Shown here in pieces: positions 2,966 through 17,019 of a DNA stretch of 24,000 nucleotides. How positions within the stretch are numbered: position 1 is the first letter of the stretch; each line of letters begins with the position of its first letter. Position numbers and translations under genes: made by a program. The notes beneath the pieces were generated by a model. The model had not been told where the DNA came from and searched no databases. It saw only the letters and a list, made by a program, of their open reading frames with translations. The stretch comes from an uncultured Pseudomonas sp. (GTDB lineage: Bacteria > Pseudomonadota > Gammaproteobacteria > Pseudomonadales > Pseudomonadaceae): positions 27,425-51,424 of the forward strand of contig CBIGPF010000017.1 in the NCBI GenBank assembly GCA_966191535.1, in the 5' to 3' direction.

Positions 2966-3100
2966 ACGTTCTTTGCGATGGCGCAGGAAGCGCCATCGGT
3001 GCGGTCGCCGCCCGGGAGGCGGCTGCACTAGGGGCCCGGAGGGACCCCGCGCAAGCCACGGCGGTCAGGGACGACCGCCGCGGACTGCACCTCTGACGAA

Positions 3101-9132: not shown

Positions 9133-10998
9133 ATGCTCAAACGCCTGTTGCCCTGGATGGCGCTGTGCGCCTGTACCCCACTGCTGGCCTCGCCCGCGAT
9201 CGACCCACAACGCCTGCAAGCGCTGGCCGACGAGCCCTACTGGCTGGCCCTGGGTCACTACGAACACGCCAAGCTCGGTGGCTGGCGCAGCTTCGTCGAC
9301 GACCCGAAGTTCTTTCTCGCCAAGGACGGAGAGCGCCATCCGCAATCGGAACTGGCCGCCACCGTGAAGGCCCTCTACGCCCCGGCCAGCCTCGGCGACA
9401 AGCACGCCCAGTGCGTCTATCCGGCGCGCACCCGCTGGCTGCGCCAGCAGTTGCAGCTCGATGACCTGCCGGCGGTCGAGTGCAAGGAATTCACCACCTG
9501 GTACCAGGACATCAACCCGCACAGCGCCGTGCTGGTGTTCCCGGCCGCCTACCTGAACAGCCCGTCCTCGATGTTCGGCCACACCCTGTTGCGCATCGAC
9601 CAGGCCGACGTCGACTCCGACAACACCGCCCTGCTCAGCTACGCGCTCAACTTCGGCGCCTACATCGAGGGCATGGACAACAGCATCCTCTACGCCTGGA
9701 AGGGCCTGATGGGCGGCTACCCCGGCCTGTTCGCCCTGGTGCCCTACCGCGAGAAGCTCTCCGAATACAGCCGCCTGGAGAACCGCGACCTCTGGGAATA
9801 CCGCCTGAACCTGACGCCGGAGGAAACCGCGCGCATGGTCGAGCACGTCTGGGAGCTGAAGCAGATCCGCTTCAAGTACTACTTCTTCGACGAGAACTGC
9901 TCCTTCCGCCTGCTGGAGCTGCTGGAGATCGCCCGTCCCGGCACCGAGCTCACCGACCACTTCCCGCTCACCGCCATTCCCACCGACACGGTACGCGCGG
10001 TGAAGGACGCCGGATTGATCGAGCGGGTGGACTACCGCCCGTCCCGCGAGCGCGAACTGCTGGCCCGCGGCGAACCGCTGAGCCACGACGAGAAGGTGCT
10101 GGCCCGGCGCATCGCCGATGACGACAGCCAGCTGCAGAGCCCCGAATTCGCCACCCTGCCCACCGACCGCCAGGCGCTGGTGCAGGACACCGCCTTCCGC
10201 CTGGTGCGTTATCGCGCGACCGGCCAGGAGCGCGACCAGTCCACCGCCACGCGCAGCTACAACTTGCTCAAGGCGATCAGCCGCAACCCGCCACCGGCCC
10301 TGGACGTGGAACGCCCGGGCCAGCCGGAGAACGGTCACGAGTCCCGTACCTGGCAACTGGGCGCCGGCAGTCGCGACGGCCAGGCCTTCGCCCAGTACGG
10401 CCTGCGCATGGCCTACCATGACCTCGACGACAACGCCTACGGCTTCCCCCTCGGCGCGCAGATCGAGATCGGCCAGCTCAAGGTGCGCCAGTACGAAGGC
10501 AACCGTTGGCAGCTGCAGCAACTGGACCTGGTCACCATCCGTTCGATGACCCCGCGCAACGAGCTGCTCAAGCCGCTGTCCTGGCAAGTCTCCGGTGGCT
10601 GGGAACGGGTGATCGGCAAGCATAGCGACAACGACCACGACACCCTGGTCGGCCACCTCAATGGCGGCGCCGGCGGCAGCTGGAAGCTGACCGACGACCT
10701 GCAGGCCTACGCCCTGGGCACTGCGCGCATCGAGAACAACCCGGACTTCGCCGCCACCATCGCCCCGGCCATGGGCTTCGACACCGGCGTGCTGTGGAGC
10801 AACCCGCTGGGCAACCTCAGCCTGGAGGGCAAGGGCGATTACTTCCACAACGGCGAAGTGCGCCGCACCCTGAGCGTCGGCCAGCAGGTCGAGCTGAGCC
10901 GCAACCTCGGCCTGCGCCTGTCGGCCCAGCGCGAGTTCAGCCATGAGGCCAGCCCACGCAGCGAAGTGATGCTGGAGCTGCGCTGGTACCACTACTGA
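9133..10998 (+). CDS. DUF4105 (Lnb N-terminal-like) protein with probable C-terminal outer-membrane beta-barrel
   Basis: 621 aa with signal peptide MLKRLLPWMALCACTPLLA|SPA. N-terminal half has PYWLALGHY...FGHTLLRI...YFFDENCS motifs typical of DUF4105. C-terminal end has alternating hydrophobic residues and terminates in LELRWYHY (aromatic terminus typical of OMP beta-signals). Confidence 0.75.
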   Translation: MLKRLLPWMALCACTPLLASPAIDPQRLQALADEPYWLALGHYEHAKLGGWRSFVDDPKFFLAKDGERHPQSELAATVKALYAPASLGDKHAQCVYPARTRWLRQQLQLDDLPAVECKEFTTWYQDINPHSAVLVFPAAYLNSPSSMFGHTLLRIDQADVDSDNTALLSYALNFGAYIEGMDNSILYAWKGLMGGYPGLFALVPYREKLSEYSRLENRDLWEYRLNLTPEETARMVEHVWELKQIRFKYYFFDENCSFRLLELLEIARPGTELTDHFPLTAIPTDTVRAVKDAGLIERVDYRPSRERELLARGEPLSHDEKVLARRIADDDSQLQSPEFATLPTDRQALVQDTAFRLVRYRATGQERDQSTATRSYNLLKAISRNPPPALDVERPGQPENGHESRTWQLGAGSRDGQAFAQYGLRMAYHDLDDNAYGFPLGAQIEIGQLKVRQYEGNRWQLQQLDLVTIRSMTPRNELLKPLSWQVSGGWERVIGKHSDNDHDTLVGHLNGGAGGSWKLTDDLQAYALGTARIENNPDFAATIAPAMGFDTGVLWSNPLGNLSLEGKGDYFHNGEVRRTLSVGQQVELSRNLGLRLSAQREFSHEASPRSEVMLELRWYHY

Positions 10999-11046
10999 TC
11001 GCAGAAGGCGTGCCCTGGCCACTGCCATGGCGCGCCTCTGCCGGCA

Positions 11047-12102
11047 TCAGTCCAGGTAGGCCGCCACTTCCTCGGCACTGAGGAAACGCACGAGCTCCAC
11101 CGATGGCTGATGCGCATCATGCAGGCGGTCGGCGAAACCCGACCAGGAGCGCGACACCCCCTCTTCGGTATCCAGCGCGATCAGCACGCAGTGGCCGTGC
11201 TTGCGGCTGTTGCTGCGCAGCGGTGCCTCGCCCCACGCCCAGGCCAGGCTGTTGACCAGCTCGCCCTTCTCGAAGGCGAATACCTGCAGCCACAGGTATT
11301 GCGCGCTGTCATCACGCGGCACGTCGACCGACGCGACTGGCGCCGCAACCTGCAACCCGAGTCGCTCGCCATGGGCAGCCAGCAGCGGTTGCAGCAGGGA
11401 GAACGCATGGAAGTTGCAGTTGATGCCCTGCGCACTCACCACCAGCCCCGTGCGTGTCGTCGGCAGGACCACCACCAGCTCGTCCTCGTAGCTCAACGCC
11501 GCCGCGTGATCGAGGAAATGCAGGTTCTCGAAGGGCAGCGTGGTGTTGGATTTCACCATCGCGTCGATGTCGCGCGCCAGTTCGCCGGCGGCCAGGAAGT
11601 CGCGGTGATTCTCCCGCGAGCGCATCAGCATGGTCATCAGCGGCAGCACCAGCAGATCGACCGCAGCGTGCGCGCTGTCGATCCGAAATGACTGCGCCGG
11701 CGTCAGGCTGTCGAGTTGCGCACGGACCTGCCGGGCAGTGGCCTGTGCGTCCTCGTCGTCCTCCACCTCCTCGTCAGCGCAGTAGGGGCGCAGTAGCGCG
11801 AGCGCTCGCCCCAGCGCCTCGAGCAGCGCAGTGAAGGCAACACGCGGACTGGCGCCGCCTTCCACCCAACTGCCGCAGAACAGCGCCAGCAGCGATGCGC
11901 GGTTGGGATTGAGCTCGGGAAACAGTGCCGCGCACTGGGCGAGCAGCGTTTCTGCAAGGGGCGTCCCCAGGGTGTCGCGATACAGCTCACGGACATCGGA
12001 GCGCTGGACGAAGTCCTGCGCTTCGACCTGATCCTCCGGCGCCTCCACCGGCTGGCACAGGAACTCCACCAGCGACGCCGGCAAACCTGTCGCCAGCGTC
12101 AT
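11047..12102 (-). CDS. Hypothetical protein (351 aa), third gene of the NADAR-SUKH cassette
   Basis: Start MTLATGLPASLVEF... chosen because its ATG (12100-12102) overlaps the upstream stop (12099-12101) as ATGA. The 395-aa ORF-track version adds an Arg-rich extension. No motif recognised. Confidence 0.6.
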   Translation of the reverse strand: MTLATGLPASLVEFLCQPVEAPEDQVEAQDFVQRSDVRELYRDTLGTPLAETLLAQCAALFPELNPNRASLLALFCGSWVEGGASPRVAFTALLEALGRALALLRPYCADEEVEDDEDAQATARQVRAQLDSLTPAQSFRIDSAHAAVDLLVLPLMTMLMRSRENHRDFLAAGELARDIDAMVKSNTTLPFENLHFLDHAAALSYEDELVVVLPTTRTGLVVSAQGINCNFHAFSLLQPLLAAHGERLGLQVAAPVASVDVPRDDSAQYLWLQVFAFEKGELVNSLAWAWGEAPLRSNSRKHGHCVLIALDTEEGVSRSWSGFADRLHDAHQPSVELVRFLSAEEVAAYLD

Positions 12103-13040
12103 GCCACGTCTCCGTCGAGTTGATACTCCGCAACGCCCTGCTCGGCGAACCACTGGATCACCGCCTCGCGCTGCATCACCCGCGCATGCACCGGTCCATT
12201 GCCGCCGCCGGTCAGCAACTGGCCCAGGTCGCAACCCTGGGCGCGCAGTTGCTCCAGCAACTCGATATCACTGCTGCGCACTGCGTGGGTCAGCGCCAGG
12301 CGCTGCAACACTCCCACGCCGGCGATATTTCCCTGCTTCAGCGCCGCACGCCAATCGCGCACCAGCGGTCGCAGCGAATCCTGCAACTGCTGCGCCAGCG
12401 CTTCGCCCTCGGCGCCCGAGGCGGCCAGTTCATCCAGGGCTTCGAGCAACTCCTGCCCGGCGTCCGCGCCCTCGGCAAACGGGTCTTCGTCAAAGCCCAG
12501 CAGTGCGAACAGGCCGTTCAGATCGTCGGCCACCCGGGTCAGTGCGTCCTCGTGCAAGCGCAGCGGCCAGGCCGGCGGCAGCGCGCGACTCCAGGCGTAG
12601 ATGGCGCCGAACTCTTCCGGCTCGACACAGACGTAGACCCGCTCCAGGTACTCGAAACCGCCGATGGGCAGGAAGCCAACGCGGCCGTCCCACTCCTGGC
12701 CGTTCTCCTCGGCGACTTCCGCGGCGCACTCCTGCTCATGTTCCAGCCAGCCCCACAGATCGCGGTAGCCGTCGCTGTCCGGGTAGAACAGCTCGTTGAA
12801 CGAGTACGGATGCAGATGGCCGTCATAGTCAACGCACAGTTCGTAATCCAGGCTGCCACCGAAGGTGCAGCGCCACAGGGCGACCAGTTCCGGCGGCAGC
12901 TTGCTACGCAGGCGCAACTCGACCTCCGCGAGCTGGGCGTCGTTGATCGGTGGCTGTGCATCGTGGATGATGCGCCCGGCGAAGCAGGCCAGGCGATGCT
13001 CACGCAGCAGTTGCTGCTGCGCCGGTGTGAAATCAGGCAT
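12099..13040 (-). CDS. SMI1/KNR4 (SUKH-1) family protein with C-terminal ankyrin-like repeat(s)
   Basis: 313 aa. N-terminal LRSKLPPELVALWRCTFGGSL...FLPIGGFEYLERVYVCV fits the SUKH pattern. The C-terminal segment LALTHAVRSSDIELLEQLRAQGCDLGQLL...PVHARVMQREAVIQWFAEQG is ankyrin-like. AAGGAGG SD lies inside the upstream gene, and there is an 8-nt start/stop overlap. Confidence 0.65.
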   Translation of the reverse strand: MPDFTPAQQQLLREHRLACFAGRIIHDAQPPINDAQLAEVELRLRSKLPPELVALWRCTFGGSLDYELCVDYDGHLHPYSFNELFYPDSDGYRDLWGWLEHEQECAAEVAEENGQEWDGRVGFLPIGGFEYLERVYVCVEPEEFGAIYAWSRALPPAWPLRLHEDALTRVADDLNGLFALLGFDEDPFAEGADAGQELLEALDELAASGAEGEALAQQLQDSLRPLVRDWRAALKQGNIAGVGVLQRLALTHAVRSSDIELLEQLRAQGCDLGQLLTGGGNGPVHARVMQREAVIQWFAEQGVAEYQLDGDVA

Positions 13041-13602
13041 TGCCCCCCTCCTTGCGCAGCACAGCGCGCACGTTCATCAGGGCAACGCCCAGCAGGTTCA
13101 ACCCGCGCCAGCGCGCCGGATTGCCCGCATCGGGATGATCGACCGCCAGGCCGATACCCCAGATCGCATCCACCGGGCTGGCCTCCACCAGCACGCGATC
13201 GCCCGTGCCCAGCAGGAATTCGCGCAAGGCCGGGTTCTGCCCGAACTTGGCGTGATTGGCGCGGCTCACGATGGCCAGGCGTTCGGCATCCCAGGTGGCC
13301 TCGTCGAAACCGCGGATCTCACGGCCGATCGACTTCGCCTCGGCCGGCGAGCGCGCCGCAAGAATCCTCGCCAGCGCCGCCTCGTCACCAAACAGCCGGG
13401 CCTTGCCGGCCATCATGTAGTGCTCGGCGCTGCCGTAGGTCTCGCCGTCGATCTCGAAGTCTGCCTCGAACCACTGGCTGAAGCAGCTCTTGTCGACGTC
13501 CGCGGAGCGCTTGGGGCGATGCCCCCAGAAGTACACGTACTTGAACGCTTCGCCCGCCTCGATGCGTCGGCACAGCTGCTCGACTGTCATCGGTTCTTCC
13601 AT
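13033..13602 (-). CDS. NADAR (YbiA/DUF1768) family protein
   Basis: 189 aa from MEEPMTVEQL... with AAGGAG 6 nt upstream. Blocks align by eye to E. coli YbiA: SAEHYMMAGKARLF vs SEHYFQAQKF, VEASPVDAIWGIG vs VEHTENDAYWGDG, GLNLLGVALMNVR vs GKNRLGYLLMELR. Confidence 0.75.
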   Translation of the reverse strand: MEEPMTVEQLCRRIEAGEAFKYVYFWGHRPKRSADVDKSCFSQWFEADFEIDGETYGSAEHYMMAGKARLFGDEAALARILAARSPAEAKSIGREIRGFDEATWDAERLAIVSRANHAKFGQNPALREFLLGTGDRVLVEASPVDAIWGIGLAVDHPDAGNPARWRGLNLLGVALMNVRAVLRKEGGNA

Positions 13603-13637
13603 GATCGGCTCCTTGCCGCTACCACAAAACGCCGATT

Positions 13638-15254
13638 CTAACGCACCCCGTCGCTGATACCGGCCCAATCCAGGCCGAAGCGCGCCAGGTACTTGCGCAG
13701 GCGGTCGGCGTCGTTGGGGTTCTGCTTCTCCTGGCGCGAGACAGCGAACAGCTGCCGGCCAGCATCAGACAGGTTGCGTGCCTGCCGGCAGACATCGACC
13801 ACCGCTTCCAGCTGCACGCGGTCGAACAGGTCCAGCGCCTCGACGCCCTCTTCCCCCAGCAAGCGATCCAGCAGGCTCGACGTCTGGGTAGCACCCCAGG
13901 AGCGGCGCAGCCGGCCGATCTCCTCCTCCACCAGCACCTCGTCGATCCGTCCACTGTCGGCCAGGGTCGCCATGCGCGTGATGGACGCCGACAGCTCGCG
14001 GAAGTTGCCACTCCACAGCGCCTGCGCCGAGTTGGCGAACGCCAGGTAGCGCGTGCGCGCCTCACGGTTGAAGCGCACCAGCCGCCCTTGCTCGCGAGCG
14101 TGGCGCTCCAGCTCGAAGTCGATGTTCGGCTCGATGTCCTCACGACGCCCAGCCAACCCCGGCAGGTCGAACGTCCAGAGGTTGATGCGGGCGAACAGGT
14201 CCTCGCGGAACAGCCCCTCGGCGACGCGCTCGCGCAGATCGCGATGGGTGCCGGCGATCAGCTGGAAGTCGCTCCCCACCTCGCGGTCCGAGCCCAGCGG
14301 GAAGAAGCGTTTTTCCTCGATGGCCTTGAGTAGCATCGCCTGCTCGTCCAGGCCCAGCTCGCCAATCTCGTCGAGAAACAGCATGCCGCCATCCGCCGCA
14401 CGCAGCAGGCCTTCGCGGGCGTTCTGCGCGCCGGTGAAGGCGCCCTTGATGTGACCGAACAGCGCAGACATGGCGCCGTCGCCGCGCAAGGTCGCGCAGT
14501 TCACCTCGACGAAGCGGCCCTGGAACTGGTGCCGCGCTCGCTTGAGTTCGTAGACGCGGCGGGCCAGGAACGACTTGCCGGCGCCAGTCGGGCCGATCAG
14601 CAGCATCGGCGCGCGGGAGCGCCCGGCGACCCGCTCGATCTGTTCGATGGAGCGGTTGAATTCGGCGTTGCGCGTGGCGATGCCGGACTTGAGGAAGGCC
14701 AGGCTTTCTTCCTGCTCGCGGCGGAAGCGCGTGGCGATACGGTCGTAACGCGACAGATCGAGGTCGATGACCGCGACAGTCCCTTCCGGCTGCCGCGCCT
14801 CGTCCTGGCGCCGCGACGGCGAGGCCTGCACCAGCCGCGCCGGCAGATAGCGCGCCTCGGTGAGGAGGAACCAGCAGATCTGCGCGACGTGGGTCCCGGT
14901 GGTGATGTGCACCAGGTAGTCCTCGTGCTCGGTATCGAAGGCATAACCGCCGACGAAATCATGCAGCGCACCGTAGACCTCCTCGAAGTCCCACGGATTG
15001 CGCAGCGCCATAGGCTGCAGGCGCACCTCGGTCTCCGGCGAGACGAGCCGAACGTCAGCGGCAATGCGCTCGGCCAGCCCGACATCCCGCGCATCCAGCC
15101 CGTGGATCAACTCCAGGCGGTCGACCAGCAAGTCCTGCTGCTGGCACAGGCCGACCGTGGGCCGCCACTTCTGCCAGCGCGCCGCGCCCTTGCCGACGCG
15201 ATCGAGGGTGGAACCGAGGAAGCCGATGGCGACAGTCTTGCGTCCTGCTGGCAT
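13638..15254 (-). CDS. rtcR: Sigma54-dependent transcriptional activator RtcR (N-terminal CARF-like sensor, AAA+ core, C-terminal HTH)
   Basis: 538 aa. Walker A GPTGAGKS, sigma54-contact motif GAFTGA, Walker B LFLDEIGEL. The N-terminus MPAGRKTVAIGFLGSTLD is typical of RtcR rather than a receiver domain. Divergent from an rsr/rtcB/rtcA operon. Confidence 0.92.
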   Translation of the reverse strand: MPAGRKTVAIGFLGSTLDRVGKGAARWQKWRPTVGLCQQQDLLVDRLELIHGLDARDVGLAERIAADVRLVSPETEVRLQPMALRNPWDFEEVYGALHDFVGGYAFDTEHEDYLVHITTGTHVAQICWFLLTEARYLPARLVQASPSRRQDEARQPEGTVAVIDLDLSRYDRIATRFRREQEESLAFLKSGIATRNAEFNRSIEQIERVAGRSRAPMLLIGPTGAGKSFLARRVYELKRARHQFQGRFVEVNCATLRGDGAMSALFGHIKGAFTGAQNAREGLLRAADGGMLFLDEIGELGLDEQAMLLKAIEEKRFFPLGSDREVGSDFQLIAGTHRDLRERVAEGLFREDLFARINLWTFDLPGLAGRREDIEPNIDFELERHAREQGRLVRFNREARTRYLAFANSAQALWSGNFRELSASITRMATLADSGRIDEVLVEEEIGRLRRSWGATQTSSLLDRLLGEEGVEALDLFDRVQLEAVVDVCRQARNLSDAGRQLFAVSRQEKQNPNDADRLRKYLARFGLDWAGISDGVR

Positions 15255-15265
15255 GAAAAACGCCT

Positions 15266-15312
15266 CTATCTATTTGGATAACATCTTATCTTTTCATATC
15301 TATTCATGGATA
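15266..15312. promoter_or_regulatory. Candidate upstream activator sites (two TATCTATT-N-GGATA repeats)
   Basis: CTATCTATTTGGATA (15266-15280) and ATATCTATTCATGGATA (15296-15312). TATCTATT recurs exactly 30 bp apart, and each copy is an imperfect TATC...GATA inverted repeat. The sites lie about 125-170 bp upstream of the predicted sigma54 start. Confidence 0.35.
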
Positions 15313-15369
15313 GAAAAAGCCCTCCTGAATAATCGAATATTTTATTTTTAAATAAATTTAATCCTTAAA

Positions 15370-15382
15370 AATCAAATATTTA
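15370..15382 (+). promoter_or_regulatory. IHF-binding-site match
   Basis: AATCAAATATTTA fits WATCAANNNNTTR exactly. It lies between the upstream repeats and the -24/-12 element, in the most AT-rich stretch of the window. Confidence 0.5.
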
Positions 15383-15411
15383 ATAAAAATTAAAAGCCCC
15401 GAAATCAAAAC

Positions 15412-15427
15412 TGGCACGCTGCCTGCT
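15412..15427 (+). promoter_or_regulatory. Sigma54 (-24/-12) promoter of the rsr-rtcB-rtcA operon
   Basis: TGGCACGCTGCCTGCT has GG at 15413-15414 and GC at 15425-15426 with canonical spacing (consensus TGGCAC-N5-TTGCW). It is about 40 nt upstream of the rsr ATG and adjacent to the divergent sigma54 activator gene. Confidence 0.8.
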
Positions 15428-15468
15428 CTATCTCTGGCACCACCAACGAAACAGAGCGAGACGGCAAG

Positions 15469-17019
15469 ATGGCCAACACCCGACTGTTCAACACCCTCGA
15501 TGCCCGCCTGCCGGCCATCGACGCCTGCAACCAGAACGGAGCGGGCGCCTATGCCTACGGCGCACGTCATCAACTGGCGCAGCTGGCAGTCACCGGTTGC
15601 CTGAACCAGACCTACTACACCGATGCCCAGGATCAGCTGGATCGTGTGCTGGCCCTGGCCGGTGAGTTGGATGCCGCCTTCGTGACCCGTACCGCGATCT
15701 ACGCCCGTCAGCAGGGCCACATGAAAGACATGCCGGCATTGCTGGTAGCGGCGCTGGCCGCGCAACGCTCGTCTCTGCTGCCGGTCGCCTTCGCCAAGGT
15801 GATCGACAACGGCAAGATGCTGCGCACCTTCGTGCAGATCCTGCGCAGCGGCGCAACAGGCCGTAAGTCGCTGGGTTCGCAACCCAAGCGGCTGGTGCAG
15901 GACTGGCTGAACACCGCCAGCGAGCGCCACCTGCTGCAGGCCGCCGTAGGTAACCAGCCGTCGCTGGCGGACCTGGTGAAGATGGTCCACCCCAAGCCGA
16001 ACTCGGCCTGGCGTGAAGCCTTCTTTGCCTGGCTGCTCGGCAAGCCGGCAGCCGCCGACGCCCTGCCGCCGCTGACGCGGGACCTGCTGGCCTTCCGCAG
16101 CGGCGCCAGCGATGCCCTGCCGGATGTGCCGCACCTGCTGCTGGGCGACCGTCAGTTGTCTGCACAGCAATGGGCTGAGCTGGGTCGTCGCATGGGCTGG
16201 CACGCGTTGCGGATGAACCTGAACACCCTGGCACGCCACGGTGCCCTGTCCTTGCCGGGCGTGGCGGATGAGCTGGCAGGCCGGCTAGCCGATGCGCAGG
16301 CAGTGGCAAAGGCGCGGGTCTACCCGTACCAGTTGCTGGCGGCCTATCGCATGGCCGGCGCGGACGTGCCGCAGGTCATCCGTAACGCCTTGCAGGACGC
16401 CCTGGAGCATTCGCTGCAGAACGTCCCGGCGCTGAAAGGTTCGGTGGTTGTGTGCCCGGACGTGTCCGGCTCCATGGGCAGCCCGGTGACGGGTTACCGC
16501 CAGGGAGCGACGACCGCGGTGCGCTGCATCGACGTCGCGGCCCTGGTAGCAGCGGCGATCCTACGCCAGCAGCCACTGGCACGGGTAATGCCGTTCGAGC
16601 GCGACGTGGTGAACGTGCAGCTCAACCCGCGTGACAGCGTGATGAGCAACGCCGAAAAACTGGCTGCCATCGGCGGCGGCGGCACCAACTGCTCCGCGCC
16701 GCTGGCACGGCTGGCTGACGAGCGCGCCAAGGTGGATACGCTGATCCTGGTTTCGGACAACGAATCCTGGATCGATGGAAAGCGCCACGGCGCCACACAG
16801 ACGCTGCACCAGTGGGAGCGCATCAAACGCGTCAACCCGCAGGCCCGGATGATCTGCATCGACATCCAGCCTTACGGCACGACGCAGGCGAAGGATCGCC
16901 AAGACATCCTCAACGTCGGTGGTTTTGGCGATGCGGTGTTCGATGTGATGGCGCAGTTCGCCGACGGTCGTTACGACGCCCGGCACTGGGTACAGTTGAT
17001 TGAGTCGATGGAGATCTGA
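15469..17019 (+). CDS. rsr: Ro60-related protein Rsr (TROVE domain + vWA/MIDAS domain)
   Basis: 516 aa. The N-terminal two-thirds is helical-repeat (TROVE-like: YAYGARHQLAQLAVTGCLNQTYY...MVHPKP). The C-terminal vWA domain has the MIDAS motif VCPDVSGSMGS and later LILVSDNES. The context (rtcR, Y-RNA-like RNAs, rtcB, rtcA) matches the Salmonella rsr locus. Confidence 0.88.
   Translation: MANTRLFNTLDARLPAIDACNQNGAGAYAYGARHQLAQLAVTGCLNQTYYTDAQDQLDRVLALAGELDAAFVTRTAIYARQQGHMKDMPALLVAALAAQRSSLLPVAFAKVIDNGKMLRTFVQILRSGATGRKSLGSQPKRLVQDWLNTASERHLLQAAVGNQPSLADLVKMVHPKPNSAWREAFFAWLLGKPAAADALPPLTRDLLAFRSGASDALPDVPHLLLGDRQLSAQQWAELGRRMGWHALRMNLNTLARHGALSLPGVADELAGRLADAQAVAKARVYPYQLLAAYRMAGADVPQVIRNALQDALEHSLQNVPALKGSVVVCPDVSGSMGSPVTGYRQGATTAVRCIDVAALVAAAILRQQPLARVMPFERDVVNVQLNPRDSVMSNAEKLAAIGGGGTNCSAPLARLADERAKVDTLILVSDNESWIDGKRHGATQTLHQWERIKRVNPQARMICIDIQPYGTTQAKDRQDILNVGGFGDAVFDVMAQFADGRYDARHWVQLIESMEI

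Follow-up and report, generated by a model that had tools for sequence, protein, structure and literature searches.

An optional NADAR, SUKH-ankyrin and P3 gene tail behind the RNA-repair activator gene rtcR in Pseudomonas

Introduction

Rtc is a widespread response for RNA repair, and little is known so far of its natural triggers and helpers. In a 24,000-nucleotide stretch of DNA from an uncultured Pseudomonas sp. (assembly GCA_966191535.1, contig CBIGPF010000017.1, forward strand, positions 27,425 to 51,424; this whole stretch is called the window below), the gene of the sensor and activator RtcR is followed on the same strand by three genes, encoding a NADAR protein, a SUKH-1/ankyrin-repeat protein (SUKH-ankyrin) and a protein of 351 aa, named P3 here. 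The question raised by this locus is whether these genes belong to the RNA-repair response or only reside behind its sensor gene. The original prediction, made from the letters of the window, had suggested that they might form a counter-toxin module co-expressed with RtcR. According to our favoured reading, to which about an even chance is given, they constitute an optional extension of the rtcR transcription unit that would provide a standing damage control complementing the inducible Rtc repair.

Results

Anatomy of the rtcR tail

On the minus strand, the tail runs in the order rtcR, NADAR, SUKH-1/ankyrin and P3, and the slot that holds it is closed by a convergent DUF4105 gene. The left border is rtcR itself (13638..15254, minus strand, stop codon TAG at 13640-13638), which encodes the sigma54-dependent RNA-repair activator (PF06956 RtcR at 5.5e-85 together with Sigma54_activat; NF038308, 850 bits, cut-off 650) and from which transcription of the cassette presumably comes. 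After a spacer of 35 nt (13637-13603), the stand-alone NADAR gene (13033..13602, minus strand; 189 aa; PF08719 at 5.5e-54) begins with an ATG at 13602 and stops at 13033. The Shine-Dalgarno motif AAGGAGG is located within its last codons, and the ATG of the following gene, at 13040, overlaps the NADAR stop by 8 nt, as ATGCCTGA. This second gene (12099..13040, minus strand) encodes a SUKH-1 and ankyrin-repeat protein in a short form of 313 aa (PF09346 at 3e-9, residues 31-175), and its stop overlaps the start of P3 as ATGA (12102-12099). P3 (11047..12102, minus strand) encodes a two-domain protein of an uncharacterised family. The right border is the DUF4105/Lnb_N gene (9133..10998, plus strand; PF13387, PF25222, PF25225).

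The first-described anatomy is confirmed as real, conserved and clearly non-random. Indeed, the gap of 35 nt, the Shine-Dalgarno motif with the 8-nt overlap and the ATGA overlap had all been placed exactly by the original prediction. The gap and the 8-nt overlap had the same length in each of the 11 main-clade species, and each of the 7 species with three genes had the ATGA overlap.

Slot states across the genus

The region behind rtcR was compared at 27 loci, namely in the window, in 24 further species of the genus that carry rtcR and in two outgroup genera; the window species belongs to the P. aeruginosa-group genus, for which the collection held 34 species, 25 of them with rtcR. The frame of the slot was invariant, consisting of rtcR, the convergent DUF4105 gene, DUF3015 and a Lon-like protease, with DUF4105 at the same place in 27/27 loci. 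Within this frame, states with none, one, two or three genes were found. The slot was empty in 12 of the 25 rtcR-bearing species (the window being counted among the 25), held NADAR alone in two (G013 and G044; outside the genus also in Ectopseudomonas alcaliphila), NADAR and SUKH-ankyrin in four, one of them with a broken SUKH gene (outside the genus also in Metapseudomonas otitidis), and all three genes in seven. Sister species thus differ in having none, one, two or all three genes, which makes the tail optional and a link with RNA repair no more than plausible. The earlier proposal that part of the cassette may be accessory is borne out by the 12 empty slots. Its statement that strain PAO1 has fewer genes here holds at species level: in G013, which represents P. 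aeruginosa and shares 99% DNA identity with a contig of that species, the slot contains only NADAR.

The states were interleaved on the DUF4105 gene tree, where well-supported sister pairs of empty and three-gene species occur and no fewer than 12 changes are required; this tree rests on one gene adjoining the slot and could be blurred by recombination. NADAR occupies the slot in Metapseudomonas and in Ectopseudomonas, the two outgroup genera, suggesting an ancient presence followed by repeated losses. In Pseudomonas sp. Pc102 (L182, 5676-6001), NADAR is deleted down to a 51-aa open reading frame (ORF) that keeps the original start region. Because this remnant still abuts the SUKH ATG, as TGATG, SUKH translation would still be coupled to upstream translation after the loss of NADAR. 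The ratio of nonsynonymous to synonymous substitution rates (dN/dS) indicated purifying selection on all three genes (0.16 for NADAR, 0.11 for SUKH-ankyrin and 0.13 for P3, against 0.10-0.12 in the flanks). The composition of the cassette is native: its GC content, overall and at third codon positions, is like that of its neighbours, and a recent horizontal transfer was therefore rejected. The broken SUKH-ankyrin gene counted above, that of G018 (L165), is cut by an in-frame TGA after 68 codons (codon 69) downstream of an intact NADAR, and looks like a decaying copy.

Expression signals and coupling

A simple scan of positions 10800-15600 detected neither terminator-like nor sigma70-like sites, in agreement with the earlier statement that no terminator lies in the rtcR-NADAR gap; the scan is insensitive in this GC-rich DNA, because it also missed rtcR's own promoter. 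A GC-rich hairpin extends across the convergent stops of P3 and DUF4105 (10994..11051, both strands; -39.3 and -40.9 kcal/mol, z -3.1 and -4.0) and likely ends both transcription units. In the empty-slot species, a perfect 14-bp hairpin spanning the rtcR and DUF4105 stops lies directly behind rtcR (z -3.25). Hence, the end-of-unit hairpin follows whichever gene is last, being behind P3 here and behind rtcR in empty slots, which fits read-through from rtcR and a sequential, coupled translation. Because no terminator-like site was seen, the 35-nt gap is fixed and a strong hairpin occurs only after the last gene, read-through transcription from rtcR into the cassette is probable. Besides, the hairpin of the empty-slot genome G014 reads ACUACUGAGGCGCG-GCG-CGCCUCAGUAGU (empty-slot loci L168-L179), and the C-terminus of RtcR ends in ..LDWASLRD in empty-slot species versus ..LDWAGISDGVR in the window.

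A second hairpin was found within the rtcR-NADAR spacer itself (13604..13636, minus strand; -16.1 kcal/mol, z -2.1). Its 3' arm pairs with the NADAR Shine-Dalgarno sequence (AUCGGC.UUUUGU / GCAAGG.GCCGAU, with UUUUGC in most sister species) and no U-tract follows it. Six of 200 shuffled sequences folded equally well, and its inner stem was kept in 11/11 main-clade species, its outer stem being broken in two; comparative support for this putative element is weak. At the ribosome-binding region of NADAR (window 13606-13614; L018, L022 and L166), three lineages have GCAAGGA and P. aeruginosa has CCAGGGA. The region is similar both to a Shine-Dalgarno motif and to ANGGA sites of the RsmA/CsrA type, and a NADAR protein has been reported as a Gac/Rsm target.

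Divergently from rtcR, the window carries a full RNA-repair operon with a Ro60-like rsr, a YrlA-type Y RNA, rtcB, rlaP and rtcA. The sigma54 -24/-12 element that serves rsr, the Y RNAs and rtcB, TGGCACGCTGCCTGCT (15412..15427, plus strand), points away from the cassette and is the only near-consensus match in the rtcR-rsr gap; over the whole window, 13 matches were obtained against 15 expected, i.e., chance level. No RtcR-dependent -24/-12 promoter was found for the cassette, which lies on the opposite strand, behind rtcR. Since the only sigma54 promoter of the rtcR-rsr gap points to rsr and rtcB, the cassette lies outside the RtcR-induced unit, and its products are expected to be made alongside the sensor RtcR and not to be RtcR-induced. 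A candidate second sigma54 promoter, TGGCGCAGCAGTTGCA (12382-12397, minus strand; TGGCGC-N5-TTGCA, one mismatch), located inside the SUKH gene about 280 nt upstream of P3, was rejected as being at chance level.

The NADAR protein

The NADAR protein matched PF08719 over the full profile (positions 1-163 of 163; 183 bits, cut-off 35.1) and TIGR02464, the riboflavin biosynthesis intermediates N-glycosidase family, with 163 bits (equivalog-domain cut-off 73.7). By profile match against the Protein Data Bank (PDB), the closest solved structures were 8BAU (9e-20) and E. coli YbiA, 2B3W (3e-11), with which the motifs SAEHY (Glu60) and DAIWGIG (Asp144 and Trp147) were aligned. In the literature, the NADAR residues corresponding to Glu60, Asp144 and Trp147 are described as catalytic. 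The first gene is hence predicted to encode a stand-alone NADAR N-glycosidase, in line with the domain identity first proposed for it. It is the single NADAR gene of the window genome (G000); the single NADAR gene of P. aeruginosa G013 likewise lies behind rtcR. In PADLOC, it matched PDC-M42C (2.5e-41), this component being the only one of the candidate system PDC-M42 present, and neither SUKH-ankyrin nor P3 matched anything.

Elsewhere, the recurring neighbours of this NADAR subfamily are the Nudix regulator NrtR, KptA/Tpt1, DUF4291, microbial PARG and a metallophosphoesterase, with no toxins among them; these are genes of NAD/ADP-ribose metabolism. A survey of ORF clusters in 80 related loci yielded no recurring riboflavin-gene neighbour. 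The idea that NADAR handles a by-product of KptA was dropped, no KptA being found in the window genome (93% complete). Among 200 evenly drawn Pseudomonadaceae genomes, 18 carried a NADAR orthologue, which was adjacent to rtcR only in this genus and one other; overall, rtcR-adjacent NADAR is limited to three related genera. In Achromobacter-type loci (L010, 8001-11512; L145), a NADAR of 58-60% identity is coupled, through a 4-nt overlap, to a 272-aa protein without Pfam or PDB match, and the convergent strand has a P3 homologue at a distance of about 600 nt.

All four NADAR subtypes tested in previous work, YbiA included, hydrolyse ADP-ribosyl-guanine in vitro, and a YbiA-like protein acts as the antitoxin of an ADP-ribosyltransferase (ART) toxin (PMC11125620). 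The ADP-ribose-metabolism neighbourhoods described above match an association with RNA repair that earlier work had pointed out (PMC9503650). In P. aeruginosa, a proteomics preprint listed “a NADAR family protein” and an RtcB homologue among the Gac/Rsm defence targets, and read both as counter-toxin factors (PMC11888443). Because P. aeruginosa has only the rtcR-adjacent NADAR, this protein is most likely the orthologue of the window gene. Among the papers searched, none mentioned both NADAR and RtcR.

The SUKH-ankyrin protein

The second protein matched SMI1_KNR4 (PF09346) with 38 bits (cut-off 25.4), which places it in SUKH-1. Its AlphaFold2 model had a mean predicted local distance difference test score (pLDDT) of 95 and was matched by Foldseek to Knr4/SMI1, BF1740 and YobK (probability 0.98-1.0) and to designed ankyrin-repeat proteins (DARPins). 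With the family profile, ankyrin and DARPin chains of the PDB were retrieved at 2e-29 over profile positions ~233-353, which supports ankyrin membership, and homologues carry PF13637. These profile and model data agree with the SUKH domain and ankyrin-like repeats named in the original prediction. As immunity domains, SUKH, ankyrin and Imm33 frequently occur in fusions or in clusters (Zhang et al., 2012; PMC3482391). From its sequence and model, the second gene encodes a SUKH-1/ankyrin protein with an architecture of the polyimmunity type, predicted to be a binding protein. Neither an adjacent cognate toxin nor a polyimmunity array, as in the immunity of polymorphic toxin systems, was found beside it, its neighbours being rtcR, NADAR, P3 and DUF4105.

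Long relatives (~417 aa) are widespread, and in P. aeruginosa the long form is encoded elsewhere in the genome, beside an Imm33 gene. The short form (307-318 aa) was found only in the rtcR slot, in 11 species of the genus (window included) and at five further loci, among all homologues of at least 60% identity whose context could be read. The five further loci vary in their rtc make-up: one has Band_7 in place of rsr beside rtcB and two have an extra Peptidase_C92. Across phyla, SUKH-ankyrin identity was 40-50%. With its dN/dS of 0.11, the slot gene is more strongly conserved than would usually be expected of arms-race immunity genes.

Two kinds of variation around rtcR were also recorded. At L182 (3460-4068) and L189 (1969-2577), rtcR is immediately preceded, after a gap of 3 nt, by a Peptidase_C92 gene of the same orientation, a second kind of accessory gene on the rtcR unit in some relatives. 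At L186 (962-2104), in a metagenome-assembled genome labelled Stenotrophomonas maltophilia, a Band_7 gene stands beside rtcB at the position that rsr has in the window, and the rtcR-NADAR-SUKH tail and the DUF4105/DUF3015/Lon frame are as elsewhere.

The P3 protein

The original prediction had described the third protein as unknown, and no match to it was found in Pfam, NCBIfam, PADLOC, PHROGs or solved folds. A Pfam search at E<=1 with 66 members of its family gave no consistent family, a profile search of PDB sequences gave nothing, and neither did an hhalign comparison of the P3 and SUKH-ankyrin families. The AlphaFold2 model (pLDDT 90, predicted template-modelling score 0.87) has a helical N-domain (residues ~1-200) and an alpha/beta C-domain (~204-351). 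With this model, Foldseek retrieved only helical-repeat noise from the PDB and BFVD (best E 0.09, template-modelling scores below 0.2). Close members of the family form 66 clusters, from Pseudomonas, Variovorax, Achromobacter and Burkholderia, and the family as a whole amounts to 362 representative clusters at E<=1e-3; its long or distant members carry TPR or no domains. Over 128 representatives (median 23% identity to P3), the polar residues Glu81, Arg161, Glu292 and Arg318 are conserved together with Trp290 and Trp320, which hints at a binding or catalytic site. Taken together, the third gene belongs to a conserved and previously undescribed family with a confidently predicted fold.

In Burkholderia contaminans (L011), a P3 homologue follows the WGR-DUF4132 gene of a vWA/SWIM/DUF5682 cluster, and an RHS toxin gene lies ~5.5 kb from it, with a two-component system and transposase-like genes in between. 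At the far end of the window, ~10 kb off the cassette, the small RNA RsmW was detected (2972-3092, plus strand; Rfam RF02809, 77.7 bits).

Discussion

A proposed standing extension of an inducible response

In the favoured reading, transcripts started at the rtcR promoter would cross the 35-nt spacer and end at the strong hairpin behind P3, and translation would proceed from one gene to the next. On terminating at the stop codon of rtcR, a ribosome would unfold the small hairpin in which the Shine-Dalgarno sequence of NADAR is hidden, and the overlaps of 8 and 4 nt would then hand ribosomes on to SUKH-ankyrin and to P3. The products would be present at a standing level together with the sensor RtcR, without induction by RtcR and sigma54. 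NADAR would clear N-glycosidic adducts or metabolites of the ADP-ribose type, SUKH-ankyrin would neutralise a protein partner by binding to it, and P3 may act in some further step of damage control.

Several points weigh against this reading. Twelve sister species lack the whole cassette, and the two empty-slot genomes that were checked were without any NADAR-family gene. A Pfam scan of the neighbours revealed no toxin domain in or beside the slot; because no toxin gene lies nearby, we can only infer a counter-toxin role for the cassette. Members of the NADAR subfamily from Actinomycetota, Bacteroidota and Pseudomonadota share 53-67% identity; rtcR lies upstream of NADAR in three of the 80 best subfamily loci, all from Pseudomonas relatives; and two further Pseudomonadaceae genera have both genes far apart. 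As for P3, no conserved partner was found among 67 loci outside Pseudomonas, where its neighbours are lineage-specific housekeeping genes, NADAR is nearby in two cases plus one fragment, and SUKH-ankyrin and rtcR never are. Regarding transcription, a PAO1 reporter with the region upstream of PA4580 gave measurable bimodal expression (PMC9765613). By gene-order counting only, PA4580 is probably the rtcR-adjacent NADAR gene of P. aeruginosa, and this expression leaves room for an internal promoter in the 3' end of rtcR. Moreover, the gap of M. otitidis (L022, 291-401) measures 107 nt and contains a long hairpin followed by UUUUU, which is terminator-like; the coupling to rtcR may therefore differ between lineages.

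Alternative explanations

The main rival, which we consider possible but on the whole unlikely, is that the three genes are unrelated hitch-hikers at a permissive rtcR 3' end and convergent junction, where genes come and go, with no job in Rtc. NADAR would then be a metabolite-damage N-glycosidase, its substrates being riboflavin intermediates or else free derivatives of ADP-ribose, and SUKH-ankyrin and P3 would each serve some purpose of their own. Such a view is favoured by the TIGR02464 score of 163 bits, against a cut-off of 73.7, and by the conservation of the NADAR subfamily across phyla, like that of a housekeeping enzyme. The neighbours of NADAR elsewhere (NrtR, KptA, DUF4291 and microbial PARG), none of them toxins, its adjacency to rtcR in three genera only, the interleaved slot states with their 12 or more changes, and the occurrence of P3 alone among housekeeping genes in Variovorax and Achromobacter all point the same way. 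However, chance residence does not readily account for a short SUKH-ankyrin that occurs only behind rtcR, both in 11 species and at five outside loci of differing rtc make-up, nor for the conserved 35-nt gap and gene overlaps. NADAR is besides kept behind rtcR in three genera, and NADAR and RtcB are both Gac/Rsm defence targets in P. aeruginosa (PMC11888443).

The exclusivity of the short SUKH-ankyrin to the rtcR slot, and its retention in Pc102 after NADAR was deleted to a 51-aa leader-like ORF, could also be explained if the tail acted on the sensor. One such explanation, judged improbable, is a regulator module in which SUKH-ankyrin, perhaps with P3, would bind RtcR and adjust its activity as an anti-activator made from the same transcript, and NADAR would destroy or make a small ribose-phosphate ligand of the RtcR CARF domain. 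Indeed, SUKH and ankyrin are both protein-binding modules, and co-transcribed protein modulators of sigma54 activators are established elsewhere (NifL-NifA and HrpV-HrpS). This is difficult to reconcile with the 14 of 25 rtcR-bearing species that have no SUKH-ankyrin in the slot, in which rtcR is still 85-97% identical, and with the species in which the gene is broken. A related alternative, to which we likewise accord only a slim chance, is that SUKH-ankyrin and P3 are dedicated partners of the Rtc sensor rather than toxin-immunity proteins. SUKH-ankyrin would bind RtcR or a factor bound to damaged RNA and thereby set the RNA-repair threshold, NADAR would remove a ribose-phosphate or ADP-ribose-type signal or adduct, and P3, with Glu81, Arg161, Glu292, Arg318 and Trp320, would be a new enzyme or ligand sensor in the Rtc circuit. 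Finally, a toxin-antitoxin pair of the YbiA-YarT or DarT1-NADAR kind, with NADAR as antitoxin of a downstream ART toxin, is largely refuted and very improbable. It was suggested by the myxobacterial YbiA-like NADAR, which lies upstream of its ART toxin YarT (PMC11125620), by the first position of NADAR in the cassette, and by the 58%-identical NADAR of Achromobacter, likewise coupled to a downstream protein of unknown function. However, no ART domain or fold was found in SUKH-ankyrin or P3, the gene directly downstream of NADAR is of the SUKH immunity type, P3 relatives are without NADAR in 64 of 67 loci, and NADAR is alone in the slot in three species.

Significance and comparison with known systems

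In one Pseudomonas lineage, a sensor gene thus carries a modular tail that has been repeatedly gained or lost, which provides natural with-and-without comparisons among close species. If the tail gives protection against the ADP-ribosylation of nucleic acids or against other toxins, a single locus would combine enzymatic reversal with toxin binding and end repair; if it is not protective, the slot would be a clear case of an operon growing by accretion where two genes converge. That NADAR and RtcB may serve defence in P. aeruginosa has already been proposed (PMC11888443). What is new here is the modular slot with its natural presence/absence series, the slot-restricted short SUKH-ankyrin and the unannotated P3 family.

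The closest known counterpart is the rtcR-adjacent NADAR gene of P. aeruginosa (probably PA4580), which is orthologous (66% identity), stands in the same rtcR/DUF4105 frame and has received the same counter-toxin proposal. There, the slot holds NADAR only, behind a gap of 55 nt, whereas the window adds SUKH-ankyrin and P3 and has a gap of 35 nt. With the NADAR/YbiA (COG3236) N-glycosidases of Phytophthora nicotianae (8BAU) and E. coli (2B3W), the window protein shares the Pfam family and the SAEHY and DAIWGIG motifs. E. coli ybiA, however, belongs to the LexA-controlled dinG-ybiB operon, whereas the window NADAR, known from its sequence, follows rtcR. A tight coupling of NADAR to a downstream partner gene is the feature common to the window and the DarT1-NADAR and YarT-YbiA pairs (PMC11125620), but the partner is an ART there and an immunity-type binding protein here. 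The same SUKH-1 and ankyrin fusion is found in the SUKH/Imm-ank polyimmunity proteins (PMC3482391), in line with the long P. aeruginosa paralogue beside Imm33; the window differs from these systems in having no adjacent toxin gene or polyimmunity array. Lastly, the locus shares with the rsr-Y RNA-rtcB-rtcA paradigm of Salmonella and E. coli the divergent rtcR, the sigma54 promoter, the Ro60-like Rsr, the YrlA-type Y RNA, RtcB, RlaP and RtcA. In that paradigm rtcR stands alone, whereas in the window it is followed by a three-gene tail on the same strand.

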